Assembly (NCBI GenBank): GCA_963666485.2
Contig: CAXXUO010000009.1
Coordinates: 416,001 to 480,000, forward strand
Length of the DNA: 64,000 nt
Direction of reading: 5' to 3'
From: Syntrophorhabdaceae bacterium
Lineage (GTDB): Bacteria; Desulfobacterota; Syntrophorhabdia; Syntrophorhabdales; Syntrophorhabdaceae
Part shown: piece by piece, positions 4,368 to 31,866 of the stretch
How the letters are laid out: each line of letters starts with the position of its first letter
Numbering within the stretch: position 1 is the stretch's first letter
Position numbers and translations under genes: made by a program
Notes under the pieces: generated by a model
Told to the model about the DNA's origin: nothing
Databases searched by the model: none
The model's input: the letters and a program-made list of their open reading frames with translations, nothing else

Positions 4368-4400
4368 ATGATATCACCAATTATTGACAACAGTGCGGCA
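4368..4400 (-). promoter_or_regulatory. Putative WYL operator plus -10 box upstream of the phosphatase
   Basis: Minus strand TGCCG-CACTGT-TGTCA-N11-TATCAT. Confidence 0.65.
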
Positions 4401-4525
4401 TGCTCAATTAAAAACCCGTATTCCAGAATGTTCTCAACCGGCAAACTGGCTTCCGATTATAACGGCTGGTTTATTCCTTTATAAGGTATCTACCCATTCT
4501 TCGTTCACAACAATTTTGTCGCAAT

Positions 4526-4962
4526 TACGTGAGGGCATATTGCCGGCTGAGGAAGGAATACCGGACCTTCGCTATTGACCGGATAGCCCTTCTCAAACCC
4601 CTCGACGACTTTTTTATGCCCATCCCGTATCGGCCGATGAGGACATGGCAGGCGCTTTTGGCGCGTACATTGATGGGGAACCTACGGATGTCACACTCGT
4701 TTTTGACGAAGAGATCCGCGCCCAGATCGGCAGGAAAAAATGGCACCCCAGCCAGAAACACAAAACACTCCCCGACGGCAGAATCGAAGTGTCGTTCACC
4801 GTAAACGGTTTTCAAGGCCTCAGGCACTGGATGTACCAGTGGATTCCCTATGTTGAAGTTATCCCCCCGGAGGAACTGAGGGTCATGCTGAAAGAGGACG
4901 CCGCGCGGGTTATTGCGAAAAATACCTCGGAGAACGGGCCAGCGGGACAGGCGGTAAAATAG
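4526..4962 (+). pseudogene. 5'-truncated, frameshifted WYL/WCX regulator remnant (paralog of 6665..7591)
   Basis: YVRAYCRLRKEYRTFAIDRI...FMP then, after a frameshift near 4625, SADEDMAGAFGAYIDGEP...QWIPYVEVIPPEELR; colinear with the C-terminal half of the intact WYL protein; no HTH region. Confidence 0.85.
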
Positions 4963-5000
4963 AAAACAAATGAGGGTAATGCAAGATTTAAAATCCAGAC

Positions 5001-5033
5001 TGCCATAACCCTGTCATGGAAGCGTCGTAATTA
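5001..5033 (+). promoter_or_regulatory. Putative WYL operator upstream of the DUF2779-like gene
   Basis: TGCCA-TAACCC-TGTCA-N11-TAATTA (imperfect -10). Confidence 0.6.
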
Positions 5034-5070
5034 ATAGTGAACCGGCAAGCCGACGGGTAAAGAGGAGACT

Positions 5071-6570
5071 ATGAGCCAGACAAACAATGATCCAATGTTG
5101 AGCAAGTCGAAATTCGTTCAGGGGCTGCAGTGCCACAAAGCGCTCTATTTGCAGATGCATAGCCCCGAACTTGCCGACCCGGTGCCGGCTTCCCGGGAGT
5201 CGCTTTTTCAGACCGGAAACGAGGTTGGCGCGCTGTCGCAAGGGCTCTTTCCGGGCGGCGTCATCATACCGTATGATGCGAATGATTACGAGGGCCAGAT
5301 TGTCCGGACAAAAGCGGAGATGGATAAAGGAACCGAGGTCCTGTATGAAGCAGCATTCAGTTATGACGGGGTGTTTGTCAAGGTGGACATCCTTCGTCTC
5401 GGCCGGGTCGGTTGGGAATTGTACGAGGTCAAGAGTTCGGCGTCCGTGCAGCCCTATCATGTCCCGGACATCGCCGTGCAGTATTACGTCCTCACCGGTG
5501 CGGGGGTAAATGTGTCGTCTGCACACCTCGTCCACATCAATACCGGGTATGTACGGAACGGCGCGATCGAACCGGAGAAGTTCTTCACCCTTGAGGATAT
5601 GACCGGCAAGGTGCAGGACATGGAGGCTTTCGTCAGGGACGAGATCGGGAAAATGAAAACAATGCTGAAAGGCGATATGCCCGTCATGGATATCGGGACA
5701 TATTGCACAAGTCCCTTTGACTGCAGTTTTTACGGCTATTGCTGGCAGCACATTCCGGAAGACTCCGTTTTCACCCTGCGGGACCGGGGTATCGACAAGT
5801 TCTCCCTGTACCGGAACGGGATCCTCCGGCTGCAGGATGTACCTCTCGATCTGCTCAATGCCCGACAGCGGCAGCAGGCAGAGCTGTTTCTCAGCAAGAA
5901 AGGATTCTTGGATAAAGGGGCCCTCAACGGTTTCCTGGAGACGATCCGGTACCCTATCCATTTCCTGGATTTTGAAACGGTCATGGCCGCCATTCCGCTG
6001 TATGACGGCACGTCCCCGTTTCAGCAGATCCCCTACCAGTACTCGATGCACTACCTGGAGCGTGAAGGGGGAGACCTAGGCCATTATGAATTCCTCGCCG
6101 AACCGAACGTCGATCCCCGCGAAGAGGTTGCGGCGAACCTGTGCAGACAAATCCCGGACAATTCGTGTGTGCTGGCCTATAATTCGCCTTTCGAAATTGG
6201 CATATTACACCGGCTCGGAAACGACTTCCCCCGCTATAAACAGAAGTTGGAGCGAATCATAGGCGGCACCATCGACCTCGCTGCCCCGTTCAGGTCGAGG
6301 CATGTATGCCACTGGAAGATGAACGGTTCATATTCTCAGAAAGTCGTTCTGCCGATCCTGGTACCCGGGCTCAGCTATAAGGGTATGGCTGTTGCCGACG
6401 GATCAATGGCCATGGACGCCTATTTCTCGATGTGCGCCGCCAAGGACCCTCATGAGATCGAGCTGATCCGGGCAAATCTCCTTGAATACTGCGCTCTCGA
6501 TACCCTGGGCATGGTCAGGATTCTGGAACGCCTGAAGACAATAGCCGAGACTGGGAAAATAACGGGATAG
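5071..6570 (+). CDS. DUF2779-family protein: N-terminal PD-(D/E)XK nuclease-like domain and C-terminal RNase H-like domain
   Basis: LSKSKFVQGLQC, KVDIL, LYEVKSS, DIAVQYYVL, C-x4-C-x5-C cluster; FLDFET, AYNSPFE, IDL, SYSQKVVLP, LLEYCALDT. Confidence 0.8.
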   Translation: MSQTNNDPMLSKSKFVQGLQCHKALYLQMHSPELADPVPASRESLFQTGNEVGALSQGLFPGGVIIPYDANDYEGQIVRTKAEMDKGTEVLYEAAFSYDGVFVKVDILRLGRVGWELYEVKSSASVQPYHVPDIAVQYYVLTGAGVNVSSAHLVHINTGYVRNGAIEPEKFFTLEDMTGKVQDMEAFVRDEIGKMKTMLKGDMPVMDIGTYCTSPFDCSFYGYCWQHIPEDSVFTLRDRGIDKFSLYRNGILRLQDVPLDLLNARQRQQAELFLSKKGFLDKGALNGFLETIRYPIHFLDFETVMAAIPLYDGTSPFQQIPYQYSMHYLEREGGDLGHYEFLAEPNVDPREEVAANLCRQIPDNSCVLAYNSPFEIGILHRLGNDFPRYKQKLERIIGGTIDLAAPFRSRHVCHWKMNGSYSQKVVLPILVPGLSYKGMAVADGSMAMDAYFSMCAAKDPHEIELIRANLLEYCALDTLGMVRILERLKTIAETGKITG

Positions 6571-6600
6571 TAAAAGGTCATCGAGGCCCGATAATTCAAA

Positions 6601-6616
6601 TGACATATTCCTGTCA
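6601..6616 (+). promoter_or_regulatory. Palindromic operator upstream of the WYL gene (probable autoregulation)
   Basis: TGACA-TATTCC-TGTCA, 48 nt before the ATG. Confidence 0.7.
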
Positions 6617-6664
6617 TTATGCCATGATTTATTCTAATCACTCGCAAAAAAAAGGGGGGGCCTT

Positions 6665-7591
6665 ATGTCGTACAAGTTCGATTCACTGATCACCATCCTG
6701 AATAAGATAGACAGCAAAGAAAGAGTGACGGCTGACTCCCTTGCCGATGAGCTGGAGATAAGCAAGAGAACGGTCTACAGGTATATTACTACCTTGACGA
6801 CCGCCGGGTTTCCCATTGACTTTGATAAGACCAATAAGACCTACGTGTTTACCGACAATTATACGTTGAAAAAACCGCATCTGTCGGTGGAAGAGGCACT
6901 GGCGTTCCAGCTTGCGAAGAAATCGCTTTCCAATCTCGGTCCCGGCCTTGAAAAAGGCCTGTGTTGTATCGAAGAAAGGCTGGCCATGGGAAAGAAAACC
7001 GATCTCAGGCACATAATTTTTTCCGGCGAAAAGGTACCGGAGCATGTCGTGGAATATTTCAGGACCATTCACGGCGCCATCGTTGATTACCGGAAGATCA
7101 GGATAACCTATAAAGCCTTTGCCGCCCAAAAGGCTACGACAGGCACGGTTGACCCTTACTACCTGTTCTTCTCGAATGGCCTGTGGTATTTCAGGGGTTT
7201 ACAGCATGCGAACAAGGCGGTCCGTACCTTTGCTCTCGATCGGATAGAATCAATTTCTGTGCTCGATAAACATTTCCTGCCCACCACTCTTGCGCCCGAA
7301 AAGGAATTGTCCGGAGCCTTCGGGCCGTTTGTCGATGGTGCCCCGGTTGACGTGGTCTTGAGATTTGATAAAACGTATACGCCCCTGATCACGCGGAAAA
7401 CCTGGCATGCGAGCCAAAAGGTAGAGGACCTGACTGACGGGGGGATCGAGGTCACATTCACAGTGAAGGGTATACACGGTATACGAAACTGGGTACATCA
7501 GTGGATACCTCACGTGGAGGTCATCGCCCCGCAGGAACTGCGCGATATGTTCCGCAATGACCTGGGCGCCGCGTTGAAACAGAACAGTTGA
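6665..7591 (+). CDS. WYL-domain transcriptional regulator (HTH-WYL-WCX, YafY/PafB-like)
   Basis: HTH LADELEISKRTVYRYI; VDPYYL...WYFRG...RTFALDRI; C-terminal VEVIAPQELR. Confidence 0.93.
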   Translation: MSYKFDSLITILNKIDSKERVTADSLADELEISKRTVYRYITTLTTAGFPIDFDKTNKTYVFTDNYTLKKPHLSVEEALAFQLAKKSLSNLGPGLEKGLCCIEERLAMGKKTDLRHIIFSGEKVPEHVVEYFRTIHGAIVDYRKIRITYKAFAAQKATTGTVDPYYLFFSNGLWYFRGLQHANKAVRTFALDRIESISVLDKHFLPTTLAPEKELSGAFGPFVDGAPVDVVLRFDKTYTPLITRKTWHASQKVEDLTDGGIEVTFTVKGIHGIRNWVHQWIPHVEVIAPQELRDMFRNDLGAALKQNS

Positions 7592-7733: not shown

Positions 7734-7766
7734 TGCCATAGTGCTGTCACAACCCGGGTTTATACT
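7734..7766 (+). promoter_or_regulatory. Putative WYL operator plus -10 box upstream of the small ORF and ARPP-1 gene
   Basis: TGCCA-TAGTGC-TGTCA-N11-TATACT. Confidence 0.7.
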
Positions 7767-7788: not shown

Positions 7789-7950
7789 ATGGGGAACAGG
7801 ACGGGAAAAGATCCCGGGGACGGGATTTGCTGTGATTGGTGCAAAATCGCTGAAGCGCTGGGGACATTTTTCGTCCCCGGGAAGGGTATCCTCAACCTCT
7901 GCGGGCGCTGCAGATTGCTGCTCATGGCGGTCCTCATAGATGAGATGTAA
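7789..7950 (+). CDS. Small putative Zn-binding protein (53 aa)
   Basis: ATG at 7789 after AAGGGGG; CDWC and CGRC pairs; stop abuts the GGAGG RBS of the next gene. Confidence 0.45.
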   Translation: MGNRTGKDPGDGICCDWCKIAEALGTFFVPGKGILNLCGRCRLLLMAVLIDEM

Positions 7951-7959
7951 GGAGGAATA

Positions 7960-8952
7960 ATGGAAAAGGTGATAGCTGACTTTATCGGTACGATCAATTT
8001 CGGAGAAGCAAAAACGCATCGGAACATGACCGTGATCCCTCTCTTCACGGATTCCAATCACGTGCCGGCTTTCCTGACACTCCGCAGGGCGTTGGAAGCG
8101 GGCCACCTCGTGATCACGGAGATCAGTGCAAGCGGGTCGGTGCCGGAGCTCCTGGCGAAAAATACGGGCGATCTGCCCATCCTGCTTCTTGACGGGGAAG
8201 AGCTTGCCGGCGCAAAGCAGAACAGGGTCCTCAACACGACGATATTGCTTCAGGAGAAGTCGGAAACGGTCATCCCCGTCAGCTGCACGGAGCATGGGCG
8301 GTGGTCGTACAGGGGCGCCCACTTCGATGATTCTGACGTGATAATGGCCAAGAAGGCGCGAGAGAACAAGGCGAGGACCGTGTCGTATTCTCTTCGGGAC
8401 CAGAAGTCGTACCGGTCAGACCAGGGGAAGGTCTGGGAAGACATAGCCGCATTGTCGGTCAAGCACGGCATTCGTTCGGAAACGGGGGCCATGCGGGATG
8501 TCTACGAATCCCGGAAGGTCTCCCTCGATGAATACATCGAGGCATTCCCTGTGCAGGACGGGCAGAAGGGGCTTTTTACCTTAATCGACGGCAAGATCGT
8601 CGGGTTCGACATCATCGCGTCCGCCGCCGGATATGCCGATCTGCATGGCAAACTTATCAAAAGCTACGCCATGGACGAACTGGCGTCCGGCGGGAAAGGG
8701 AACAATGGGGAAGACGCCCGGAAAAAAGCCAGGGAATTCTTCGAGATGCTCCTTTCGTCACGGGAAGAAAAATATAAATCGATAGGGTACGGCATCGATT
8801 ACCGTTTCGAGAATGGAATCGCGGTAGGCTCGGCCCTTGTCAGTTCCGAAAAAGTGATACACATGGCAGTCTTCAGGTCCACCCAGTCGGACAGGACGGG
8901 AAATATGTCGGGACCGGCGCAGAGGCGGGCCAACAGGTCGAGGGCCTTATAA
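7960..8952 (+). CDS. ARPP-1 (DUF6569) family protein
   Basis: ITEISASGSVPEL, LLLDGEELAGAKQNRVLN, IPVSCTEHGRW, SDQGKVW, KLIKSYA resemble this family; strong RBS. Confidence 0.75.
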   Translation: MEKVIADFIGTINFGEAKTHRNMTVIPLFTDSNHVPAFLTLRRALEAGHLVITEISASGSVPELLAKNTGDLPILLLDGEELAGAKQNRVLNTTILLQEKSETVIPVSCTEHGRWSYRGAHFDDSDVIMAKKARENKARTVSYSLRDQKSYRSDQGKVWEDIAALSVKHGIRSETGAMRDVYESRKVSLDEYIEAFPVQDGQKGLFTLIDGKIVGFDIIASAAGYADLHGKLIKSYAMDELASGGKGNNGEDARKKAREFFEMLLSSREEKYKSIGYGIDYRFENGIAVGSALVSSEKVIHMAVFRSTQSDRTGNMSGPAQRRANRSRAL

Positions 8953-9043: not shown

Positions 9044-11512
9044 TCATCCGGGGACATCTTTCATTTTCGCGATCCGTCCTTCAATTGCTGACGGCTGGCG
9101 CTGAAAGATGACGGATAATGTTTTGATATCGCCGGTCTCTTTATGGAGCCTGAAAAGCAGGTCGTCTTCTTCCCTGCTCCATGGCTCAAATGCCCTTTTA
9201 TATGTCAACCTGATCTTCTGAATCTCCGGGTCAAGCGTGTCATCATTCAGTATTACCATCGGAAGGCTGCTTATCTCATCTATGGCATCCCGCGTTGTTT
9301 CAGGAGACAGGACCCTGTCTATCACCGGCGTATCGGACTCCGTCTCGCTATTCACCATTACTCCGGAACTGTCGCTACTAACCTCAGATCCCTGACCATG
9401 TTCGTATGTTTTCATGGTGACGTGGGCCTTGTAAGCCCAGACGGTAGGCGGAGATACCCCGACTGTTTCAGCGATCTGGCTGGAATTTAATCTACCTTCT
9501 GCCAGCAGTCGCAATATCTCGGACTTCTTATCCTCTTTTGAATTGCAATCCAAATCAGTTCGTGAAGCAAGTACCGCTTTGCCTATGATTAACCCGGCTT
9601 GCCCGCCTGGCACATTCTCTTTCTTTTCGATATTGTGCGTTTTCTTGTACTCTCTTACGATCTCAAGGAACATCTCCCCGTACTGCTCCAGTCTTTTGGC
9701 CCCCACACCATAAATGCCTTGCATCTCATCGATCGAGTCGGGCAGCACGGTCGCCAATTCTTCCAGGGTGCGGTTATGAAAAATGACATAAGCCGGGAGA
9801 GAGTTCTTTTGGGCCAATTCCAGCCTGAATGATTTCAACTGCTCGAGGAGTTCCGCGTGGCACTCTCCCTGTACAAGCCTGGCGCCCGCATCACGATCGG
9901 GAGGTTTTGATTTTGCCATATTCTGCTTCACCGGGATAAGGGGGTCCTTGCGCAGCAGGAATTGTTCATCCCCCGACAGGATCGGTTTACATTTCCCTGT
10001 CAGTTTCAAGCCGCCATGGTTGGCCATATCTACCCTGAGAAACCTGTTGGCAACCAGCTGCCTGAATACCGACTTCCACTCGAATGCCGACAATTCTTTT
10101 CCGGTGCCGTAGACTGTTAGCGTATTGTGCCTGAAGTTCCTGATCCGCTCCGTGTCTTTCCCGAGAAGCACGTCGATAAGGTAGTTGGTGCCGAACATCT
10201 GGCCCGTCCTGTACGCGCATGTCAGCGCTTTCCTCGCGATGGCCGTCCCGTCGACGGTTTCCGTGCCGTTCATGCATATATCGCAATTGCCGCACGGCTC
10301 ATGCAGCGTTTCACCGAAATATGCCAGGAGCACCTCCCTCCTGCAATGGCCGCTTTCGCAATAACCGAGCATGGCTTCCATTTTTCTGTATTGGATCCGT
10401 TTAAACTCCTCGCTTCCCTGGGAGTCATCTATCATTTGCTGGAGCATGACGATATCCGCCATGTCGTATACCATCCACGCGTCGGCAGGCTCACCGTCGC
10501 GCCCGGCCCGGCCCGTCTCCTGGTAATAATTCTCGAGCGTTTTTGGAAGGTTCAGGTGCGCCACGAACCGTATGTCCGGCTTGTTGATCCCCATGCCGAA
10601 GGCTATTGTCGCGACCATGACGATCCCGTCGTTCCGCAGGAAACGCTCCTGGTTCTGCACACGGGCATCCCGCGTCAAACCGGCATGGTACGGGAAGGCG
10701 GTTATATCGTTGTCTCTCAGGAATTCAGCGATCTCCTCCGTCTTCTTACGCGTCATGCAGTACACGATGCCGGACTGCCCGGGATGTTCATTCTTCAGGA
10801 AATTCAACAACTGGACCTTTTCCTTGTTCTTCACCTCCACCCTGTACGTAATGTTCGGGCGGTCCAGCCCTGAAATGAAATGTTTGGCATCTTGAAAATG
10901 GAGTTTTTCAATGATGTCCCGGCGGGTGAATTCATCCGCCGTTGCCGTCAGGGCAATGCGGGGGATGTCCGGAAAAAGTTCGTACAGTTCACCGAGCCGG
11001 AGATATTCCGGCCTGAAGTCGTGGCCCCATTGCGACACGCAGTGGACCTCGTCTATGGCGAAGAGAGATATCTTCATATTTTTCAGTAAATTCAGGAACG
11101 GCCCGGTCATGAGCCTTTCCGGGGCAACATAGAGAAGGTCAAGGTCCCCGTTGATCGCTGCCCGTTGAATAGCATACGCTTCGTTGCCGGCCAGCATTGA
11201 ATTCAGGAAACCCGCCCGTATCCCCAGCTGCGTGACCGCGTCGACCTGGTCCTGCATGAGGGCGATCAACGGCGAGATCACGATGCATGTCCCCGGGGAC
11301 ATCAAGGCCGGGACCTGGTAGCAGATCGATTTGCCGCTTCCCGTGGGCATCAGCGCAAAAACGTCCCGGCCGGACATCAGGGATTGGATTATGTCTTCCT
11401 GGTACGACCGAAAAGCATCGTACCCGAAGTATTTTCTCAAAATAGTGAGGGGCAGAAGATTATCGCTTTGCATATCCATAAAGATCCGGAACCGGCCGTC
11501 CTTTCCCGTCAT
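9044..11512 (-). CDS. recQ: RecQ DNA helicase with HRDC domain and an extra C-terminal extension
   Basis: MPTGSGKSICYQ, DEVHCVSQWGHDFRPEY, ALTATA, ATIAFGMGINKPD, YYQETGRAGRDG, Zn site CRR...CGNCDIC, HRDC LPAYVIFHNRTL; exact start uncertain. Confidence 0.95.
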   Translation of the reverse strand: MTGKDGRFRIFMDMQSDNLLPLTILRKYFGYDAFRSYQEDIIQSLMSGRDVFALMPTGSGKSICYQVPALMSPGTCIVISPLIALMQDQVDAVTQLGIRAGFLNSMLAGNEAYAIQRAAINGDLDLLYVAPERLMTGPFLNLLKNMKISLFAIDEVHCVSQWGHDFRPEYLRLGELYELFPDIPRIALTATADEFTRRDIIEKLHFQDAKHFISGLDRPNITYRVEVKNKEKVQLLNFLKNEHPGQSGIVYCMTRKKTEEIAEFLRDNDITAFPYHAGLTRDARVQNQERFLRNDGIVMVATIAFGMGINKPDIRFVAHLNLPKTLENYYQETGRAGRDGEPADAWMVYDMADIVMLQQMIDDSQGSEEFKRIQYRKMEAMLGYCESGHCRREVLLAYFGETLHEPCGNCDICMNGTETVDGTAIARKALTCAYRTGQMFGTNYLIDVLLGKDTERIRNFRHNTLTVYGTGKELSAFEWKSVFRQLVANRFLRVDMANHGGLKLTGKCKPILSGDEQFLLRKDPLIPVKQNMAKSKPPDRDAGARLVQGECHAELLEQLKSFRLELAQKNSLPAYVIFHNRTLEELATVLPDSIDEMQGIYGVGAKRLEQYGEMFLEIVREYKKTHNIEKKENVPGGQAGLIIGKAVLASRTDLDCNSKEDKKSEILRLLAEGRLNSSQIAETVGVSPPTVWAYKAHVTMKTYEHGQGSEVSSDSSGVMVNSETESDTPVIDRVLSPETTRDAIDEISSLPMVILNDDTLDPEIQKIRLTYKRAFEPWSREEDDLLFRLHKETGDIKTLSVIFQRQPSAIEGRIAKMKDVPG

Positions 11513-11655
11513 GTACGGTAATTTGTAAGAAAGATGGATTTACTTTTCCTAATCTACGCATAACGACGGAACTTTCGCAAGAAAACTGAATATGAATTTT
11601 GTTCGTTCGCAATGAATTAATTTCGGCCACCCAAGCAGGCGGCGTGGTTTCCCCG

Positions 11656-13503
11656 TTACGTCTTTGATGACTGCAAGGCTTTTGACAGGCTGCGGATCAG
11701 CGGCGTCTCTTTCATGTAGGGAATAAACAGGTTGTACCGCGCCCGGGTGAGGCCGACATATGTCAGGTTCCTGATATGTTCAGCCGCCATTTTTTGTTCG
11801 GTTAATTGATCGAGCCCGACGAGAAATACACAGGCATAGTCGAGGCCTTTCGCGCTGTAGATCGTCGATATGGTCACACTGTTGGTGGTGATGTCATACG
11901 ATCTCTTTGACCTGTAATCTTCAGAGGCCCACTCAGACATTATTCCCCGCATATCGAGCGCGCCGGTCAATTCGTGTACCAGGTTCGTGTCCCGGCCGTC
12001 CAATGTTACATTTTTGGAAACATAGAGAATGGCGATCTCGGAAAATGAAAAGCCCTCCTTCATCGTAAGCGATTCAATTTTATTGGCGATGTAGGTTATT
12101 AAATCGGAAGGGCCTTTGAGCTTTTTTATAACGGGTTTTGGCCCATGGGATTCAAGCAGATCAGGCGCGAAAAGCATTTCCGGGGTATTTTCACAAATCA
12201 CCGGTTCTGCGCAATCCATCATGAACGACCTGACAAATTCGGTGATCTCCTTCGTGTTGCGATATACCGCGGTCAGATTCCTGACTTTGCCCAGCTTGAG
12301 AATGCCGGCGCCCTTGTTCCGGTAGATGATCTGTGACGGGTCTATTGCGATCGTCAGGCTGTCGGTAGCCGGGTTGAGAAGGCCCAGAAGGACCCTGTAC
12401 ATGTCTTCGTTGAAATCCTGACCTTCGTCTACCAGGATCGCATCGTATTTCAGGCTCGTTTCCGGTATCTTGTCAAGCGTCAACTGAACGACCGTATCGT
12501 AATAATCCGACTCCTCTTTTTCATAATGGACCGTTTCTCCGGTTATCCTGGCGCACAATTCAAAGAAGTGGTACACCTCTACGCCCTGAGGGCCCATGGA
12601 GACATGTTTCTCTGCGAGAAGCCTTTTTATGTAATGTGCCAGCGTGATGTTGAAGCAAACAAAAAGGATCGACTTTATGGCCGGGTTATACTTCTTCAGG
12701 AAGACCGCCTTATGGATCAGGACGAGCGTCTTGCCGCTGCCGGACGGGCCGGATATGATGCGGTGTCCCGGGTCAAACTGGCGGGCAAGCGTCTCCTGAC
12801 GGTGGTCCAGCATGGCAACGTATTCGACATGTTTCTGATATTTCTCCGAAGGCCCCCGGAACGGCAGAACGATCTTTACCGATGGGAAAATAAGGTATTT
12901 GAGATGTTCGATATCGGCCGCGGTCAGGGACACGTGAAATATCGGGGTGAACATCCGGGCGATGGCGCTGGTAAATTCAGTGCCCGATGTGTCCTCGCAT
13001 ATCGGGGAATATGTGCTCAGGTCGCCTTCGAAAAATATCTTGTTTGACGATATTACCCCGCGAAGCTTTTCTTCAAAATCATCTCTGAAAATATTCGGAA
13101 AGACGACCCCGCGGTCCAAAGGGATTTTTGGCTTTCCGGAATATTCCGGATCGGCCGATACAAGCCTCCTGTCACCTTTGATCTTATCCATCAAGCTATT
13201 GATGTACCGTTTTGCCTGTTTGTAGGGATTGGTCCTTTTTTCAACGTGGTTGCCATTGACGATGCTGAAATGTTCCGAATCCGCCCCTTCGATCTGGTCT
13301 ATAACCCAGTCTTTCACTTCGAAAATTATCAGACCTACATCCGGGGAAAAAAGGATGAAATCCGGCTCGTTGTCATTTATCTCGGGAGTATACCAAACAA
13401 TGTAGCGACTGTCGGGCTTGGCATATAATCGAAGAAAATTATAGAAAGTCTCTTCGCCCGGCGTGTTGAACTGCTCAATATCGGAGGGGATCATAAGCGC
13501 CAT
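11656..13503 (-). CDS. NERD nuclease domain fused to a UvrD-like SF1 helicase
   Basis: EPDFIL...FEVKDW...NPYKQA; GPSGSGKT, VDEGQD, STIYSAKGLD, YVGLTRAR. Confidence 0.85.
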   Translation of the reverse strand: MALMIPSDIEQFNTPGEETFYNFLRLYAKPDSRYIVWYTPEINDNEPDFILFSPDVGLIIFEVKDWVIDQIEGADSEHFSIVNGNHVEKRTNPYKQAKRYINSLMDKIKGDRRLVSADPEYSGKPKIPLDRGVVFPNIFRDDFEEKLRGVISSNKIFFEGDLSTYSPICEDTSGTEFTSAIARMFTPIFHVSLTAADIEHLKYLIFPSVKIVLPFRGPSEKYQKHVEYVAMLDHRQETLARQFDPGHRIISGPSGSGKTLVLIHKAVFLKKYNPAIKSILFVCFNITLAHYIKRLLAEKHVSMGPQGVEVYHFFELCARITGETVHYEKEESDYYDTVVQLTLDKIPETSLKYDAILVDEGQDFNEDMYRVLLGLLNPATDSLTIAIDPSQIIYRNKGAGILKLGKVRNLTAVYRNTKEITEFVRSFMMDCAEPVICENTPEMLFAPDLLESHGPKPVIKKLKGPSDLITYIANKIESLTMKEGFSFSEIAILYVSKNVTLDGRDTNLVHELTGALDMRGIMSEWASEDYRSKRSYDITTNSVTISTIYSAKGLDYACVFLVGLDQLTEQKMAAEHIRNLTYVGLTRARYNLFIPYMKETPLIRSLSKALQSSKT

Positions 13504-13521
13504 GAAATAGCCTCGCTATTT

Positions 13522-16500
13522 TTATTGTGCCCTGTATATCGTCAAATCACAACTGTTTCCGCCACGCAGGAAATTCAAAGTAATTTCGGTCTTTTCTCCG
13601 CGGCGGGTGCAGAAATCGAGGAGCGCGTGCATGTGTTCCAGGCCTTTCACCGCCTCCGGGTTCTGGAGGACGTCGAATGAAGGTTCGAGAAGGGGGCGGG
13701 GGAGGAAGACGATGCATTTTGACCGGGCGCGGCTCACGGACACGTTGATGCGGTTGAGGCTGTAAATGAACTCCGCCTCGCCCAGCGCCGTCTCGACATC
13801 GCTCACCCCGTAGCTGACAATGACGCAGTAGCTTTGCTGTCCCTGCATCTTATCCACGGTATCGACGAAGGACGGGCTTTCCCATCGCCGGGCCAGGGAG
13901 AGTTCATGCCGGATAGCGCGGATCTGCGCGTGGTGGGGACTGACGATGAAGAGCCCCCTGCGCCAGAATTCGGTGTCGCCGTCCCGGGTATCAGCATAGG
14001 CAGTGCCCGTATCGGGATTTATGAGACGCTCGCGAAGGTATTGAGTTATTTTGGCGACGAGCTCGGCCTCCGCCTGGTTCTCGACCGTCGCCCGGATACC
14101 CTCGAGGATGCACAGTGTCATGGGGTATTCGGGGGCAGTGATCCATTCGCAGAGTTTTTTCTCGTCGGGAGTTAAACCTCGTACGGGTTTATCACGCAAC
14201 GCCGCGCGCTGCACTTTTATGGACCCGGTGGCAGGCTGATACTCCGGGCCGTACAGTGTTTCGGCCGGGAAATCCGAGAGCGTCTGGTTCATGCGCCAGT
14301 TATCGGTCAATTGCTGCGTATACGGCTTCTCCCCGTCGTCGCGCGCGCGAAGATAGGCGAAGATCGAGCTGTCAAGGCCCGGCAGCCCGTCTTCCGGTTC
14401 GGGGTAGACGCCTTTCATGATGGGCGGCAGCTGGAGGTCGTCGCCGGCAAGGACCAGCTTTCCTCGCGGGGCAAGGACCTTCAGTGCCATAGCCAGCTCG
14501 CCGAACTTCATCTGTGATGCCTCGTCGACGACGAGCAGAGGGAAATCCCCCGTGATCTTCGTCTTGAACAGGCTGTATACGGTCCCGCCGATGACGCACA
14601 CATCGCTTGAAATGTCTGCCGCCTGGACCTCGGGAATGGAGTCGATATCTTCAGCCCGTGAGGTCGCGATGTGTTTCAGCTTGAAGATATCCGGGCCGCC
14701 TTCGATACCGAAGAGGGCCGCGTGGTCGCGGATCTCGACAAGCAGGTTCTCGACCGCCGCGTGCGTGAACGCGGTCACCGCTGCCCGAAAGGGCTTCCCG
14801 CTGTCTTGCGCAGCCTTTGCCATGCTGAGGACCGCCTTGGCGAGAAAATGCGTCTTGCCCGTGCCGGGAGGGCCCCAGATAAGTGTAAGCCTGTTCTTCA
14901 GCACATGGTTGAACGCCGATTCCTGGCTCCGGGTGAAGCCGGCGGCGGACCCGGCAACCCTCAGCGAGCGTACGGCATTGTCGCTGAGAAGGGATGTTTC
15001 ATGCGCAAATTGGTGCGGCGTCCTGATGAGCGAAAGGAAATCCCTGTCACCCGAGCGGTCCAATTCGCCGAGGTTGCCGATTATCCTGTCGACATTGGCA
15101 TCCGTGAACCGCGGATGCAGAACGGCCTCGTGGCCGCGCTCAAGCCGGGAATGCCTTTTGGACTCTTTGAGATCGAGGGAAAGATGGGTGACCTTGCCCG
15201 TCTGCGGATCGATCTGACGCCCTGTTATCCGGGCGAGCCGGACATTGTCGTCGGCGGGCGACCAAAAAGCCTTTCTGTGCCTGTAATCGTCGTATCCCAT
15301 CTGGGAGCGTTCCCCATTTCGTCCCGCGGGGACGAGAATGAACGAGAAGAAGTCACCGGCCTCCTCGATAACGCTGGCATCGAGGTCCGACTCCACCTGC
15401 CAGCTGTCAAAACCCTGTTTCTTGAGCGGTATGCTTGTCCCTTCCCTGACCCTTTCCGGCCATGGCAGCCCGCGCTGCTCACGGACATCGAGGGCGCCAA
15501 GGAGTGATTCATACCGCGCTATGAACGCGAGGCGGGACAACTCCGGGTTCACGAAATCAAGCGGGTCGGGGAATTTGAACTTCGTCGGCCACGCCAGCAG
15601 GCAATCCTGCACCTTTTCCCTCAAACCGTCAAGGACGAGCCCCGTTGCGTACAGGCGACGCGAGATCTCGCTCCGTATCCAGTCGAGGGCCTCCAGCCTG
15701 TTCTTCGTCCATGCGAGGAATATCGGGTCGCTCTTGAGGACGTTGCTGAGCTCGAACCAGAACATCTTGTTCGGCTCCAGCGTGTAATCGGACGCCGAAG
15801 GCGGGAGGACCTTGAGGACGTCGGGCAGGCGAAGTGACAGAGGCACGGGAAGCGCCAGAAGCTGGCGGATGACGCTTGTCATCACGATAACGGGGAAAGG
15901 GACATCATCCCTCGGATGCTCGTCGGCCTCCGCAAGTGTGGTGTCCTGAAAATGGAACAGGAGCTGGACAGCTATCTCGGACAGCTCCGGATCGGTTAAC
16001 GATTCCTTCAGCAGCCGGTTGAACAGGCTCAGTTCATAGGTGTCAAAGACATAGCTCTGCATCGACTTCTGCCCGGCCCAATCGTCTTTGCCCTCATTGT
16101 ATGCGTGGAGCACGGAAAGCTCGCGGAAAAGCGCCTTGAGGAAATCTTTACGGACGGAATCGCAATCGTCCGGTCTTTTCGCCAGGAATATCTCCTCATG
16201 CATCCCGTCACCAAAGATGTCCTTGCCCTTCAGCCTCCTGAATGCCGCCGCATAGACCCTTCCGGTGACCGGGTCTTCCTGGATGGTCATAAAGATCGCC
16301 ACATTTTCCATGACGGGCAATGACACGGTAAAACCGCCGTGACACAACACCTCCCCGTTCTTCAGAGCGGAAACGGCGTTCCGCAAGCGGTCCCCTTTCG
16401 ACCTCAACGAGCCGCAGGCATCGAGGCACGCATCGGACGCATCCTCTTTGAGGAAATCCTCGAGATCGTCGAGCGTGTTTATCGGCTCCGTCCCGCCCCA

Positions 16501-17312
16501 GGGCACCTCCCGGAGGTATGTCCTGCCCCCGATCGACAGGTACGGGATGAGCGAGATCGACCCCTTCTCGTCCGCCTCTTTTCTGCAATGCTCATAAAAC
16601 TCACACCACTCACACCGGAAGAAGAGGTGCCAGGACAGCTCATCGATCGGCGCCGTCAGGACCTTTCCGAGCTTTTCCCGGAGGAAATCCTCGATGGTGA
16701 GAAGACTGAACCTGAGGTCAAACCATTCCGGTTCCGGGTCACCATAAAGCCAGACCCCGCCGGTCCCGAGATCGAGGGGCAGATCGAGCCCGTTTGCCCG
16801 GGCAACATCCCGCAGTATGAGCGTGTAGGTGGCGACCTGGATCCGGTGGGATACCTTGAGCTCGGTGCTCGCCTTGATATCGATGACCTTCAGACGTGCA
16901 TCCCCGTTGTCCCCATGCATCTGGACCAGGTCCGGCCGGCAGGGCGGGAACTCGCAGAGATCGGACGCAATGCCGTAGCGTTTCAGAAAGATGTCCGGGA
17001 TCTGGAGGGTCGGCTGGTAAATTGCCTCCCCCGGCCTCAATGCGGGCAGGATGGCGAGAGTCTCGCCGACATCGTGAGCCCTCTCATGGACCTTCCCTTT
17101 TCCCCTCGCGACCCTTACCCGGTCCTTCAGCCTTTTCTCGATTATCTCCCTTTCCCAGGTGAACCCGCCCTCAAGTATCGCGGCCCTGACCGGGCTCGTA
17201 TCCCACGGGATGTCGGGCACCCCGTCCGCTTTCCTGCGGTCCTTCGGGGTGGCGTGATACCGCAAGTACCTTTCGCATTCGTGGTAAAAATACCGGGCTA
17301 TTCTCGACGGGC

Positions 17313-17331
<19 letters not shown>
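13522..17331 (-). CDS. N-terminal RecB/Cas4-like PD-(D/E)XK nuclease fused to a DNA2/Upf1-like (SF1B) helicase
   Basis: ECERYL...RPDLV...IDIKAS...HRIQVATY...CEWCEFYEHC; GPPGTGKT, VDEASQ, GDDLQLPP, TVDKMQG, RINVSVSRAR; ATG at 17331 preceded by GGAG. Confidence 0.85.
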
Positions 17332-20063
<2,732 letters not shown>

Positions 20064-20295: not shown

Positions 20296-20763
20296 TTACG
20301 ACACCTGCGCCGTCGGCATCACCTCGACAATGCCGTCTTCCGCGTAAAAATCGAACTCGGAAGACTTCCTCATTTCGTCATGGTCTCTGTGTATGTCGTC
20401 CATGAAGATACCGAAGGCCCTTTTTTCGTAGGAGGCCGCAAATACCGCGCACATGTTCAGGTTCGGCCTTTCCCCGTCGACATTCGTGTAGAAGGCGCTG
20501 ACAAGGGACCTTCTGCTGAAATCGTTGATTATTTTCAGATAATCAGAAGCATAGTTCACAGCATTTTGCCCCATGCAATATGCGATCGAAACGCCGACCC
20601 CGACGAACCTTTTGAAGACCCAGAGTGACGGCCTGTGGTGGTGAGTTGCATAGAGGCCATGTTCGTCATCCTCACTGCCCGTATACCTGACCTCATAGCC
20701 CAGGTATTCGAGGTGCGCCAAAAAATACTGAAATTCGTTCCCCTTCTCGTCCTTTTTCGCCAT
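20296..20763 (-). CDS. Hypothetical protein, possibly YbjN/type III chaperone-like fold
   Basis: 155 aa with good RBS; HLEYLGY start and INDFSRRS pattern loosely recall YbjN. Confidence 0.55.
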   Translation of the reverse strand: MAKKDEKGNEFQYFLAHLEYLGYEVRYTGSEDDEHGLYATHHHRPSLWVFKRFVGVGVSIAYCMGQNAVNYASDYLKIINDFSRRSLVSAFYTNVDGERPNLNMCAVFAASYEKRAFGIFMDDIHRDHDEMRKSSEFDFYAEDGIVEVMPTAQVS

Positions 20764-20793: not shown

Positions 20794-20826
20794 ATACTAT
20801 CACCGGCCGATGACAACACCATGTCA
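20794..20826 (-). promoter_or_regulatory. Putative WYL operator plus -10 box
   Basis: Minus strand TGACA-TGGTGT-TGTCA-N11-TAGTAT. Confidence 0.7.
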
Positions 20827-26904: not shown

Positions 26905-27176
26905 GTATTCTTTTGTTTGCCGCGCAGGCGCCTGATAACGTCATCGGCGGCCTCGATCTTCCCGTCGTCAGCCTGTTTATTGCCGAGCGCCAGTATCTTC
27001 AAAAGGGCCATTGTCTCCATTGTCTGCTCATAGCTCTCTATATCTTGTATAATAGCCTTCGCTGTCCCATTTTGAGTGATGATAAGCGGTTCCTTTTGTC
27101 CCCCTATATCCCTGACTATCTCGGATGCATGGGCCTTTAAATAACTGATGGGTTTTATGCGGCTGGACAATTTCAT
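26901..27176 (-). CDS. Phd/YefM family antitoxin
   Basis: MKLSSRIKPISYLKAH...PLIITQNGTAKAII; start at 27176 supported by GAGGT RBS and a promoter just upstream. Confidence 0.9.
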   Translation of the reverse strand: MKLSSRIKPISYLKAHASEIVRDIGGQKEPLIITQNGTAKAIIQDIESYEQTMETMALLKILALGNKQADDGKIEAADDVIRRLRGKQKNT

Positions 27177-27790: not shown

Positions 27791-27823
27791 TGACAAGCAT
27801 ATGTCACCTCGCACTGCTAAAAT
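27791..27823 (+). promoter_or_regulatory. Putative WYL operator plus -10 box upstream of the ADP-ribosylglycohydrolase
   Basis: TGACA-AGCATA-TGTCA-N11-TAAAAT. Confidence 0.72.
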
Positions 27824-27879: not shown

Positions 27880-28647
27880 ATGATCGGTGCAATTGCAGGT
27901 GATATCATCGGCTCGGTGTACGAGTGGCATAACCTCAAAACGATCGATTTCCCTCTCTTTGATCCACTCTGCACTTTCACCGACGACACCGTCCTCACCA
28001 TTGCCATCGCCGACGCGATCCTGTCCGGCACTGATTACGGCCCCAGGCTCAAGGAATGGTATCGTCTGTACCCGGACCGGGGTTACGGTTCCGGCTTTCG
28101 CCGCTGGGCCAGAAGTCACAGTCGTCAGGGCGACAGCATGGGCAACGGCTCTGCCATGCGCGTGAGCCCCGTCGGCTTCGCCTTCAACACGCTGGAAGAC
28201 GTGCTGGAAGAAGCTCGAAAAAGCGCCCTCCCGAGCCACAACCACCCCGAGGGCATCAAGGGCGCGCAATCCGTCGCCTCCGCCATCTTCCTCGCCCGCA
28301 CGGGAACCGGCAAGGAAGATATCAAGAAATACATTCAGGAGACATTCGGCTACAACCTTAACCGTACCCTCGAAGACATCCGCCCCCGCTACCGCTTCGA
28401 CGCCACCTGCCCCGGTTCCGTCCCCGAGGCAATAACCGCATTCCTCGAATCAAACGATTTCGAAGACGCTATTCGCAAAGCGATCTCCCTCGGCGGCGAT
28501 TCCGACACGATCGCATGCATTGCCGGCGGCATCGCCGAGGCGTTTTACGGCATTCCCGACTACATTCGTATCCGGACGCTGGAGGAACTTGACGATACGT
28601 TGCTGAGTACCGTGGACTCCTTCACCAAAGAATACTGTTCTGCATAA
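27880..28647 (+). CDS. ADP-ribosylglycohydrolase (DraG/ARH family)
   Basis: GAIAGDIIGS, FTDDT, GNGSAMRVSP, SHNHP, GGDSDTIACIAG. Confidence 0.93.
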   Translation: MIGAIAGDIIGSVYEWHNLKTIDFPLFDPLCTFTDDTVLTIAIADAILSGTDYGPRLKEWYRLYPDRGYGSGFRRWARSHSRQGDSMGNGSAMRVSPVGFAFNTLEDVLEEARKSALPSHNHPEGIKGAQSVASAIFLARTGTGKEDIKKYIQETFGYNLNRTLEDIRPRYRFDATCPGSVPEAITAFLESNDFEDAIRKAISLGGDSDTIACIAGGIAEAFYGIPDYIRIRTLEELDDTLLSTVDSFTKEYCSA

Positions 28648-28747: not shown

Positions 28748-28756
28748 GTTCCCATT

Positions 28757-29366: not shown

Positions 29367-29598
29367 GAGAATTAGGTGTTTAGCTTTCTTCATAACACTG
29401 CCTCCTGAGAATTGGATTGTCATCATCTATGACAGAATTATACCACTTCAGCCGTCAGGAGGATCACCTGATATTTTTTGGACGAGATTTCGGCGGGTGA
29501 ATCGATGGTCTGATGCTGAAGAATCATTCTTTATTTTCTTTCTTACTGGTGATACATTCGTTTTACAAGAAGGACAGTACAGGCAAGGAGAAGAAGTT

Positions 29599-30660
29599 AT
29601 GGTGCACAGGATTGCGGTCATTCCCGGCGATGGTATTGGAAAGGAAGTTGTTCCCGAGGGAATTCGGGTTCTCGACGCCGCGGGAGAACGATTTAATATA
29701 AGGTTTCAATGGGAATTCTTTCCCTGGGGATGCGAATATTATTCATTACACGGGAATATGATGCCGTCCGACGGGCTGGCCACACTGAAAAAATTCGAGG
29801 CGATCTATCTTGGCGCCGTCGGTGCACCCGGGGTGCCGGACCATATCTCGCTGTGGGGTTTACTGATCCCCATACGCACAAACTTCCGGCAGTACGTCAA
29901 TTTAAGGCCGGTGAGGCTGCTTGAGGGTCTGCAAAGTCCTCTCAAAAACAAGAGGCCTGGTGATATCGATCTGTGCATCGTGCGTGAAAATAATGAGGGC
30001 GAATATTCCCGGGTCGGCGGGAGGATGTATGAAGGGGCCGACCGGGAAATGGCTATACAAATTTCGATCTTCACGAGGGAAGGTGTTGAAAGGGTGATAC
30101 GGTTCGCTTTTGAACTCGCGAAGAGAAGACCAAAAAAACATCTCACATCTGCCACGAAATCAAACGGGCTCATTCACACCATGCCTTTCTGGGACGAGAT
30201 ATTCCGGGAAATTTCACAGGATTACCCGGAAGTAAGAGCTGACCAGTTCCACATAGATGCGCTGGCCGCCGCCCTCGTCCTCCGCCCTGAGAATTTCGAC
30301 GTCCTCGTGGGAAGCAACCTTTTCGGAGATATCCTCTCAGACCTTGCTCCGGCCCTTGCAGGGGGCCTCGGTATCGCCCCGTCGGCGAATCTCAATCCCG
30401 AGCATGAATTTCCCTCCATGTTTGAGCCCGTTCATGGCTCCGCACCTGATATCGCCGGAAAAGGCACTGCGAATCCCATTGGGCAGATATGGTCCGGTGC
30501 AATGATGCTCGACCATCTCGGTCATAGCGATGCCGCTCAGGCAATAGAAGAAGCCATAGAAAGAGCACTGTTGGAAGAGAAGACCCGGACACCCGATCTT
30601 AACGGAAGCGCATCCACTCAGGAAGTAGGCATAGCAATCAGGGATTATGTCATGAGATAG
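29599..30660 (+). CDS. ttuC: Tartrate dehydrogenase / D-malate dehydrogenase (decarboxylating)
   Basis: IAVIPGDGIGKEV, VPDHISLWGLLIPIR, RENNEGEYS, TSATKSNG, SNLFGDILSDL, FEPVHGSAPDIAG; ATG at 29599 after AAGGAG. Confidence 0.9.
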   Translation: MVHRIAVIPGDGIGKEVVPEGIRVLDAAGERFNIRFQWEFFPWGCEYYSLHGNMMPSDGLATLKKFEAIYLGAVGAPGVPDHISLWGLLIPIRTNFRQYVNLRPVRLLEGLQSPLKNKRPGDIDLCIVRENNEGEYSRVGGRMYEGADREMAIQISIFTREGVERVIRFAFELAKRRPKKHLTSATKSNGLIHTMPFWDEIFREISQDYPEVRADQFHIDALAAALVLRPENFDVLVGSNLFGDILSDLAPALAGGLGIAPSANLNPEHEFPSMFEPVHGSAPDIAGKGTANPIGQIWSGAMMLDHLGHSDAAQAIEEAIERALLEEKTRTPDLNGSASTQEVGIAIRDYVMR

Positions 30661-30734
30661 ACTGGCTTCTCCCGAAAAAAAACGGGACACATCCGGGCCA
30701 AATTCGATTGGAAGAACGACTGGTTCCCGAGGGA

Positions 30735-31730
30735 TCATTCACCAGTTTTATGGCTGGCGACAACCTTCTTATAAAATCTTTCCGCCTTTGCCGGGTTTAT
30801 TCGTTTTAATTCATGATAGGCATTCATGACTTTTTCTTCCCGGCCGGCTATTTTATATACAACTCCCAGGTCGAACCAGGCATCCGCATAATCCGGATCG
30901 AGTTCGACACATTTTTCGTAGCTTGCGGCGGCTTTATTCGTTTCCTGCAAGGTCATATACGCAAACCCCAGGTTAAACCAGGCCTTTTTATCACCCGGGT
31001 AAAGGTCCAATGATTTCCTCAAATACACGATGCCTTTGCCCGTTTCGCCCGCAATTGCATATATCGTTCCCAGGGAATGCCAGGCAGCGGCATTTTTCGG
31101 TTCCACCATCGTCCAAACCTGGCAATACGCTATTATTCCCTGGATATCATTCTGCGCTTCGAGATTAGCCAATTCTGCCCGCCGATCTTCTGAAATGAAG
31201 GAACCACCCTGTTGTCCTTTCTCCACGGCCCGCTTCCCGCCATCGGATGACGTTCCCTTGGGAATTTCCAGGTCTGCAGGTAAACATACCTCGCTTGCCA
31301 GCCGTTCAATAAATGTGTTCGGAGGAATCGGCCTGAATCCAAATCCACCGCGTTTTTTGTTTTTATCCCCGGTACTAACATCATTAAAATTGGCATCCCG
31401 GAAAACAATTTCGACCTGGTTGTATTCCCATTTCCTGCAGTCGATTTTCTCACGGGATTGATAATGCGTGGCCCGCGGTGATCCGGGAAGGCTTTCGGCC
31501 ATAACTACCATCATTTCCGTGGACAAAATATGGCGGGTTTTAACCGAAATTATTCCCTTCCCTTCGTGCACGACGGAAAGCCTGTCATATACCAGCGTTC
31601 CGGTCCTATTTTCTCCCACCTCGACCCATTCCGGGTTCGGAGCTTCCCGGCAGAAACCGAATACAGCCACACATATGCACAGCACAATAGTTCCCACAAT
31701 GATCGCAATTCCTGGATTGAAGCGACTCAT
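30735..31730 (-). CDS. Exported or membrane-anchored protein with C-terminal TPR repeats
   Basis: N-terminal hydrophobic segment; AWHSLG, AWFNLG, AWFDLG repeats. Confidence 0.8.
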   Translation of the reverse strand: MSRFNPGIAIIVGTIVLCICVAVFGFCREAPNPEWVEVGENRTGTLVYDRLSVVHEGKGIISVKTRHILSTEMMVVMAESLPGSPRATHYQSREKIDCRKWEYNQVEIVFRDANFNDVSTGDKNKKRGGFGFRPIPPNTFIERLASEVCLPADLEIPKGTSSDGGKRAVEKGQQGGSFISEDRRAELANLEAQNDIQGIIAYCQVWTMVEPKNAAAWHSLGTIYAIAGETGKGIVYLRKSLDLYPGDKKAWFNLGFAYMTLQETNKAAASYEKCVELDPDYADAWFDLGVVYKIAGREEKVMNAYHELKRINPAKAERFYKKVVASHKTGE

Positions 31731-31833
31731 ATCGGTGTCTCCTTTGCTTTTATATACACCCAGTGCACTGACGAATAGAGATTGGCGGCGGTGATGAAGC
31801 GTAATCGCCGGAGGAACCCCGCAATAACGAAAA

Positions 31834-31866
31834 ATTATATCGCACTAAGGTGACATCATCATGGCA
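31834..31866 (-). promoter_or_regulatory. Putative WYL operator plus consensus -10 box upstream of the TPR gene
   Basis: Minus strand TGCCA-TGATGA-TGTCA-N11-TATAAT. Confidence 0.72.

Follow-up and report, generated by a model that had tools for sequence, protein, structure and literature searches.

The locus and its promoter element

In a 64,000-nucleotide window from the genome of a Syntrophorhabdaceae bacterium (the window being the whole stretch analysed, within which positions without a contig name are counted), genes for a phosphatase, a DUF2779 nuclease, a WYL-domain regulator, a small CxxC protein with ARPP-1, a YbjN-like protein, an ADP-ribosylglycohydrolase (ARG) and a TPR protein all stand behind one promoter element, a 16-bp box, TG(A/C)CA-N6-TGTCA, with a sigma70 -10 placed 11 nt downstream and no -35 (Table 1). 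A preliminary description of this DNA had placed seven such boxes before seven scattered transcription units, and had proposed that the WYL protein encoded at 6665 activates them in a LexA-independent response to damage or phage. We find every one of these boxes where it was said to lie, each upstream of a gene on the same strand, and five TANNNT hexamers do indeed begin exactly 11 nt past TGTCA, the DUF2779 site having TAATTA and the WYL site TTTATT at that place. What has to be revised is the size of the regulon: the seven units are real, but it is larger, with an eighth site that a looser pattern finds in front of another phosphatase gene and with additional sites on other contigs. The gene labels hold by Pfam for the phosphatase, DUF2779, WYL, ARPP-1, ARG and TPR genes; the YbjN-like gene has no Pfam match, and its label comes from ESM Atlas neighbours.

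Table 1. Box-carrying promoters and genes of the window, with positions counted from its first nucleotide.
Feature	Position	Strand	Context or basis
Box (left half TGCCG) + -10 TATCAT	4368..4400 (box 4385-4400)	-	before DSP phosphatase 1
Box + weak -10 TAATTA	5001..5033 (box 5001-5016)	+	before DUF2779; weakest site, 13.7 bits
Regulator's own promoter	6600..6628 (box 6601-6616)	+	before WYL gene
Box + -10 TATACT	7734..7766 (box 7734-7749)	+	before small CxxC ORF + ARPP-1
Box + -10 TAGTAT	20794..20826 (box 20811-20826)	-	before YbjN-like gene
Box + -10 TAAAAT	27791..27823 (box 27791-27806)	+	before ARG
Box + -10 TATAAT	31834..31866 (box 31851-31866)	-	before TPR gene; 31.1 bits
Eighth site, TGCCA-N6-TGTCG + -10 TATAAG	42669..42701 (box 42686-42701)	-	before phosphatase 2; 22.5 bits
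Rhodanese-phosphatase-superfamily (DSP/PTP-like) phosphatase 1	3825..4322	-	Pfam Tc-R-P, PTP-SAK
Broken second WYL gene: WYL tail + WCX, frameshifted, no HTH	4520..4962	+	Pfam, genome searches
DUF2779 / Cas4-like PD-(D/E)XK nuclease	5071..6570	+	Pfam
wHTH-WYL-WCX regulator, 308 aa, proposed activator	6665..7591	+	Pfam HTH_11/WYL/WCX
53-aa CxxC...CxxC protein, recurrent regulon first gene	7789..7950	+	homolog clustering
ARPP-1, most consistent enzyme-like member	7960..8952	+	Pfam PF20208
Helicase/nuclease genes, four co-oriented: UvrD-PDDEXK, AAA_11/12, NERD-UvrD, RecQ	9044..20063	-	Pfam
Probable YbjN/TY-chaperone	20296..20763	-	ESM Atlas neighbours (0.92; PF10722 on 21-24% of their members)
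ADP-ribosylglycohydrolase (ARG)	27880..28647	+	Pfam
TPR protein, probably exported (hydrophobic N-terminus)	30735..31730	-	Pfam, sequence
DSP/PTP-like phosphatase 2, likely GTG start at 42639	42106..42639	-	Pfam

Support in the window and the genome

The seven distinct boxes in the window compare with a mean of 0.61 and a maximum of three in 150 order-4 Markov simulations, and the combination of box and -10, seen five times, did not arise once across all 150. Throughout the genome, where intergenic DNA makes up 14% according to our own open reading frame (ORF) caller, 23 of 40 strand-matches at the 6-nt spacing are intergenic, as against 2 of 35 at N5 and 4 of 59 at N7, and a slightly wider pattern for box plus -10 gives nine matches, every one intergenic. 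The motif is thus commoner than in simulated sequence and preferentially intergenic, and in both respects the preliminary description stands. After a strict box in the 3.77-Mb genome, TANNNT follows eight times at 11 nt and never at 4-10 or 12 nt (seven matches at 13 nt are the shadow of TATA(A/C)T). Stripped of its -10, the box is weakly enriched, with 26 matches at N6 against 6-19 with other spacers, so the signal resides in box, -10 and position together. A scan with a position weight matrix (PWM), a check already proposed for these sites, was run with a matrix trained on 112 sites, all from other genomes; it returned 14 sites of at least 20 bits, 13 of them intergenic, where column-permuted controls averaged 0.5, and six of the seven originally noted sites scored at least 21 bits, the DUF2779 site falling below.

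Architecture of the promoters

Those -10 positions that the search did not fix are occupied, in a sample of 78 target promoters, by T (72%), A (86%) and A or C (94%; A 53%, C 41%), and on average no more than 1.6 of the 6 bases of TTGACA are matched at spacers of 15-19 nt. An extended -10 (TGn) is found in 25 of the 78, and 53 have neither a -35 nor TGn. T accounts for 51-63% of the bases 6-10 nt upstream of the box, a stretch that would sit where an UP element is expected. The 6-nt centre is neither random nor palindromic, with G at box position 10 in 70 of the 78 promoters and C at the mirror position in 19, and it has the consensus TACTGT across unrelated target families; this asymmetry could reflect asymmetric docking or a contact with polymerase.

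In the regulator's own promoter the left half of the box and the base before it form a -35, ATGACA, followed after a 17-nt spacer by the extended -10 TGcCATGAT (6623-6628), and a generic promoter scan independently calls the same region, 6600-6628 (ATGACA-17-CATGAT with TG). TANNNT at 6 nt is found in 18 of 27 own promoters compared with 7 of the 78 targets, and among 29 boxed close orthologs TANNNT lies at 11 nt in 24 and at 6 nt in 15. Since a -10 at 6 nt makes nTGACA a 17-nt-spaced -35, the WYL gene seems to carry a basal promoter. Its 11-nt -10 has decayed here, the window's hexamer comparing with TAGAAT in a 77%-identical relative. The WYL gene's own promoter thus has a box that also serves a second -10 as -35, and this suggests autoregulation.

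Distribution among relatives

Across 65 family genomes there are 143 matches to the strict pattern with 11 nt between box and -10 (N11), compared with 14 at N10 and 17 at N12, and the controls with a 7-nt centre or with the pattern reversed give 32 and 3. A centre of 7 nt, of the DriD/DdaA type, is rejected on this count of 32 against 143. Site counts average 3.74 in genomes that have the close WYL clade (at least one in 23 of 23), 2.18 in those whose only WYL is distant (20 of 22) and 0.45 in those without a WYL match (8 of 20); a strict site lies within 5 kb of 39 of the 54 family WYL genes. An unbiased test picks its genes without the motif, in our case ARPP-1 by Pfam alone, and here 19 of 21 genes have a box within 500 nt, all 19 with TANNNT at 11 nt, the two misses being one gene at a contig end and one directly behind a WYL gene. 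ARPP-1 itself is present in 21 of 45 WYL-positive genomes and in none of the 20 WYL-negative ones. At recA, where 30 of 63 loci were found, none of the 30 has a box plus -10 at 11 nt within up to 1.5 kb.

Beyond the family, nine of ten genomes have sites, 19 in total as against four in controls, every one of them within the WYL locus. The regulon is thus a local one in those genomes and a dispersed one in this family. A box within 120 nt upstream is carried by 29 of 39 close orthologs, which come from Syntrophorhabdales, Nitrospirota and other deltaproteobacteria.

The WYL regulator

The 6665 protein is the only intact HTH-WYL-WCX regulator found in the genome, the other WYL matches being a PIF1-helicase fusion, the frameshifted WYL/WCX remnant of Table 1 and an HTH-only copy on another contig, C3, which has the same promoter as the intact gene. 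In the fusion (C9:14689-16251) the WYL domain is C-terminal to a PIF1-like helicase, and the two remnants are complementary, that at 4520-4962 being C-terminal (48% identity) and that at C3:225248-225436 HTH-only (88%). A PafBC-like heterodimer was considered for this genome and rejected, the other WYL copies being fragments. The closest named relatives of the 6665 protein belong to Syntrophorhabdus metagenome-assembled genomes (MAGs; 79% and 63-64%), others to Nitrospirota and further deltaproteobacteria, and a search of a plasmid collection gave four distant matches only (25-28%).

In its AlphaFold model (pLDDT 85), helices 75-89, 93-105 and 126-140 form a helical linker (3HB), so that the protein has the winged helix-turn-helix (wHTH), 3HB, WYL and WCX architecture of DriD/SiwR/DdaA-type activators. 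DriD is also the model's first match, with a Foldseek E of 5.8e-19 and a VIA-align Z of 18.9 over 300 residues with the root-mean-square deviation (rmsd) at 10.8, which is large and applies to the whole chain; the C-domain gives a Z of 18.7 and an rmsd of 3.5. Against PafBC the Z is 13.5, and against the repressors BrxR and CapW 11.5-12.8. Sequence searches gave no CapW/BrxR match to the 6665 protein, and the RWHVR motif of CapW is absent from the consensus, the 6665 protein having RTFALDR at the strand equivalent to that by which DriD holds single-stranded DNA (ssDNA). Y168, Y192 and R204 of DriD align to Y149, Y175 and R187, and the pocket residue R177 is invariant in all 39 close orthologs. 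R35 and R39, the RxxxR of the recognition helix, are kept in 39 of 39 close-clade proteins and in 24 of 24 of a second clade. The family's WYL matches indeed fall into a close clade (at least 40% identity) and this second one (30-37% identity, ~330 aa), which are split with an SH-aLRT of 100 in a quick tree used solely for clade separation. Second-clade genes (L148, L185 and L188 are examples) lie directly upstream of box-carrying promoters, and three genomes (G028, G029, G062) have both clades.

Genes behind the box

Sequence was fetched behind most family sites, excluding those before WYL genes and seven near contig ends, and targets were counted in the first three script-called ORFs of 149 distinct strict sites. 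The counts are 21 each for a 60-aa acidic protein and ARPP-1, 17 for WYL, 14 for beta-flower, 10 for the 53-aa CxxC protein, eight for DUF2779 (in related loci), seven for ERCC4, five each for YbjN-like and Cas3, four each for DSP phosphatase and UvrD, three each for type I restriction-modification (R-M) methyltransferase, ARG and Bro-N, and two for SbcD-like; Tpt1/KptA, YpsA SLOG, an exonuclease, UDG, HmaA and a TIR protein with PADLOC Aga (Argonaute-associated) matches are single cases. About 25 strict sites have no ORF call, among them real sites read in reverse and others that probably match by chance. In relatives the box precedes Cas3 in type I-C-like loci (L099, L071, L130) and type I R-M operons (L100, L124, L125), and DSP-ARG operons occur in relatives. 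Among the commonest first genes behind the box is that for the 60-aa acidic protein (L009:2990-3172 and 21 homologs), for which Pfam and NCBIfam gave no match and the Atlas gave matches below 0.9, the weak ones including phage proteins (0.83). The annotated target proteins include none of recA, lexA, uvrA, ssb or ruv.

Outside the window, this genome has sites before a small protein and a DSP phosphatase (C2:650661, with a decayed duplicate at C2:653653), before another DSP phosphatase (C9:83722), before a calcineurin-like phosphoesterase followed by an ERCC4 nuclease (C1:1412317), and before the 60-aa acidic protein and a beta-flower protein (C1:539936). Inside it, the YbjN-like gene has four helicase/nuclease genes behind it, starting 233 nt downstream, and co-transcription with them is only possible; five homologs of the YbjN-like gene were found, every one the first gene behind a box, and they have different genes downstream. 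At an E of 1e-25 no full-length ortholog of the TPR protein was found in 64 family genomes, so it is the site by itself that makes this gene a candidate member. The neighbours of ARG are ParE/Phd and HicB genes, and within the window no ADP-ribosyltransferase or sirtuin gene is adjacent to it.

LexA and RecA are both encoded in the genome, in which no box was found upstream of recA or lexA and LexA-box counts showed no enrichment at N4. Directly before lexA, on C1, lies GTAC-N4-GTTC, which we take to resemble a LexA box of the GAAC-N4-GTTC type; recA is inside an operon with no obvious box.

Several neighbouring features deserve mention in their own right. Behind the eighth site, at 38477-42654 on the minus strand, the phosphatase gene comes before a series of co-oriented genes that encode an HhH protein, a 288-aa possible nuclease, an 82-aa protein of unknown kind and HD phosphohydrolase-like, DUF1810 and gamma-glutamyl cyclotransferase-like proteins, possibly an extended operon. 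Toxin-antitoxin genes (ParE/Phd, HicB, Phd/PIN) lie amid regulon members at 26575-27176, 28757-29089 and 37661-38394. From 47134-64000 in the window to C9:478500-493000 runs a long minus-strand defence cluster of low GC and of the phosphorothioate Ssp type, with SspB, SspC, SspD, two kinases, kinase-SspF, SspG and SspH/DndH-like genes, a second DUF4007 and SspC-like pair, Schlafen AlbA_2 and Macro; at its head (C9:489136) a box-like TGACG-N6-TGTCA has TATTAT at 12 nt, one nucleotide off register, which makes it a weak candidate target. The window also encodes a 1041-aa fusion of Hsp70-like and Fic domains (43021-46146; SoFic/PDC-S04-like matches), and a cytochrome c552 (NrfA-like) gene spread across two overlapping frames (21036-22293), either a frameshift or an assembly error.

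How the system may work

We think it likely that the box is the operator of a homodimer of the 6665 protein, acting as a DriD/SiwR/PafBC-type activator of a conflict-response regulon. Each wHTH would read a GTC/GAC half-site through R35 and R39. If transcription starts ~7 nt past the -10, the box would span about -39 to -24, with GTC at about -26, and would cover the -35 zone, so that the bound dimer would supply the RNA-polymerase contacts that a missing -35 cannot, while the A/T tract upstream may serve the C-terminal domain of the alpha subunit. A ligand of nucleic-acid type in the WYL/WCX pocket would switch the regulator on, with ssDNA as the leading guess by analogy. The predicted output comprises ARG, DSP and calcineurin-like phosphatases, ARPP-1, the YbjN-like chaperone, DUF2779 and ERCC4 nucleases and small unknown proteins, in relatives also Cas3, type I R-M and other defence genes, the core SOS genes not being targets. 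At the regulator's own promoter, binding of the dimer should shut the basal start that uses the left half-site as its -35, and an activated start 5 nt downstream would be opened by it in relatives; here, with the second -10 decayed, negative feedback would be what is left.

Most of what the preliminary description had proposed has comparative support, from spacing, co-occurrence, geometry and fold: that there is one regulon, that the 6665 WYL protein is the likely regulator, that the spacing is of the PafBC type and that control is by activation, not repression. The idea of a DNA-damage regulon in the style of DriD or PafBC is not supported, given the absence of box plus -10 from the 30 recA loci, a lexA without a box in this genome and a list of annotated targets that includes no recA, lexA, uvrA, ssb or ruv gene; recA and lexA were accordingly rejected as targets. 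A dispersed regulon with activator geometry points instead to a conflict or defence response. As for 'LexA-independent', LexA and RecA are present, so the term would mean a response parallel to LexA.

A number of observations weigh against this activator reading and should be kept in view. With its extended -10, a third of the targets could fire without help, and in the window the DUF2779 and WYL sites are without the last or the second -10 base, respectively. The TPR target is not conserved. Kin are not independent, and co-occurrence statistics overstate the support; moreover, the eight WYL-negative genomes with sites keep one or two each, through fragmented MAGs or another binder. RxxxR is not diagnostic, because it is also present in five of six outgroup proteins that lack the box, and so fits the pairing with the box without proving it. 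Among the ssDNA contacts of DriD, R207 aligns to A190 (36 of 39 orthologs) and R178 to G160 (R in 22 of 39). Finally, in other genomes the second WYL clade uses the same box.

What else could the box be? That the WYL protein binds this operator as a repressor, which occludes the -35 zone of strong -10 or extended -10 promoters until a ligand releases it, on the logic of CapW/BrxR and of the model that Iyer 2022 put forward for ARG systems, is in our view unlikely, even though the box overlaps the position expected for sigma region 4, the -10s come close to consensus (with TGn in 25 of the 78), the own-promoter geometry is that of a repressor site and PMC9503650 terms these regulators negative, from gene context only. 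Against it, 53 of the 78 targets have neither -35 nor TGn; the spacing, moreover, is base-exact across unrelated targets and equals the PafBC register, and fold and sequence are nearer to DriD/PafBC than to CapW/BrxR, with no RWHVR. It is very improbable that the box is the site of a different transcription factor, one that simply has the WYL gene among its targets: single sites do persist in 8 of 20 genomes without a WYL match, but site counts track WYL presence, most WYL genes have a strict site within 5 kb, and in the ten outside genomes all 19 sites are inside the WYL locus. Hardly credible at all, and largely refuted, is a duplicated promoter cassette, or a set of chance matches, without any regulon. 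The two C2 sites are a near-identical duplication, the C3 site duplicates the WYL promoter and the central 6 nt are biased to TACTGT; against this, the window's eight sites have no flanking sequence in common, the pattern greatly exceeds both shuffles and spacing controls, and it turns up again ahead of unrelated gene families across three phyla-level groups.

A different kind of alternative keeps the activator and changes the signal, from plain ssDNA to an ADP-ribose-, cyclic-phosphate- or RNA-fragment-type ligand arising from phage attack. This is compatible with the activator model, and we regard it as a tentative possibility, somewhat on the unlikely side. The targets act on ADP-ribose and terminal phosphates, the pocket is unlike that of DriD (A190, G160 and the invariant R177), Nudix (ADPr-sensing) and WYL regulators are mutually exclusive in these systems (Iyer 2022, PMC9503650), and the WYL protein MbpR, whose half-site is the similar TG(C/T/A)CA, responds to c-di-GMP (PMC11880434). 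Yet Y149, Y175 and R187 are kept, DriD, PafBC and CapW all bind ssDNA (for CapW, PMC11662680), and DdaA, with a similar Arg-to-Ala change (position mapped here), still needs the ssDNA tyrosines for damage induction (PMC12392091, PMC13010146). Bolder still, and rather doubtful in our eyes, is the notion of the WYL clade as a dedicated switch against phage ADP-ribosylation, which would take an ADP-ribose- or damaged-end-type nucleic-acid signal instead of generic ssDNA, drive a dispersed regulon parallel to LexA, with ARG, phosphatases, ARPP-1, the chaperone, nucleases, CRISPR-Cas3 and R-M in it, and flip its own promoter from basal to activated.

Why does any of this matter? The activator model would give the ARG/phosphatase/ARPP systems an operator, a promoter architecture and a membership list, and would extend the -26 register of WYL activators from actinobacteria and Caulobacter to syntrophic deltaproteobacteria and Nitrospirota. 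One operator would also tie ARPP-1 and the 60-aa acidic, 53-aa CxxC, beta-flower and DUF2779 proteins to one response, so that these unknown proteins can be tested together. Most likely, the palindrome lets one nucleic-acid-sensing regulator of this anaerobic syntroph and its relatives turn on genes for ADP-ribose removal, phosphatases, nucleases and anti-phage functions, in a WYL regulon that would appear to have left DNA repair to LexA.

Comparison with known systems

The feature is genuine and has good comparative support; it would act in the manner of DriD, SiwR and PafBC and is the ortholog system of none. Its best structural match, DriD of Caulobacter crescentus (PDB 8TP8, 9PFV), is likewise a homodimer-type wHTH-3HB-WYL-WCX protein that reads a palindrome through RxxxR, has a site in its own promoter and binds, over the -35 zone, at one fixed distance from the -10 of promoters without a -35 (PMC13004042); R37 and R41 of DriD read the GTC triplet (PMC10853764), as do R46 and R50 of PafB, and by our own reading two printed DriD promoters show xANNNT 12 nt after TG(T/G)C, the same register as here. 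The DriD site is CGAC-N7-GTCG (GAC-N7-GTC), compared with TGACA-N6-TGTCA (GAC-N8-GTC) here, its targets include recA, recJ, dnaG and didA, whereas recA is no target here, identity is ~23%, and R207 and R178 are not kept. Mycobacterial PafBC, with the consensus tGTCgg(N10)tA(N3)T (PMC8635444), has the identical TGTC-N12-TANNNT register, GTC at about -26, no -35 and two GTC-reading arginines, but it is a tandem-gene heterodimer on one half-site that controls recA and ~150 damage genes (PMC8635444), whereas the present system has a single intact gene, a full palindrome and no recA target, and the 54 family WYL genes listed include no adjacent pair.

SiwR of Mycobacterium smegmatis, a homodimeric WYL activator on an imperfect palindrome between the -35 and -10 zones, requires a -26 element within that palindrome; it differs in its GGA triplet and in serving a single adjacent dinB-like operon (PMC10693628) rather than a dispersed multi-gene regulon. 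DdaA of Moraxellaceae is a WYL activator of CRISPR-Cas and R-M promoters (in Acinetobacter) with a CGWCA half-site and an Arg-to-Ala change in the ssDNA strand, but its CGWCA-N5-TGWCG lies ~50 bp upstream of the start, and it replaces SOS for recA, uvrA and ssb (PMC12392091, PMC13010146), whereas this genome has LexA, and none of these three genes is a target. CapW and BrxR are also WYL regulators of defence genes with palindromic operators, yet they are local repressors released by ssDNA (PMC11662680), and they match the model less well than DriD does.

Closest in gene content are the host systems against phage ADP-ribosylation predicted by Iyer 2022 (PMC9503650, section 3.8), whose neighbourhoods are placed under negative WYL or Nudix regulators and contain ARG without a coupled transferase, R-P and calcineurin-like phosphatases, ARPP, YbjN/TY-chaperones, REase-fold nucleases with helicases, a WYL regulator and ARPP-WYL pairs. 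The target set of ADP-ribose, phosphate and nucleic-acid enzymes that the preliminary description had pointed out is thus seen, but as a WYL-associated anti-ADP-ribosylation system it had already been predicted there. Neither a published operator nor a Syntrophorhabdus WYL regulon was found in open article text, and figure 7 or the supplement of Iyer 2022 may list these neighbourhoods. Section 3.8 describes compact neighbourhoods and gives no operator, whereas here one operator links the parts over tens of kb and several contigs, and ARG lies ~19 kb from ARPP-1 and at least 14 kb from either phosphatase, which is no tight neighbourhood. Where that model has negative regulation released by ADPr, the promoter geometry argues here for activation, and the sign of control is probably opposite to the published one. 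The general mechanism, then, is already known; what is particular to this system is its operator, the content of its regulon and the dual promoter of its regulator.

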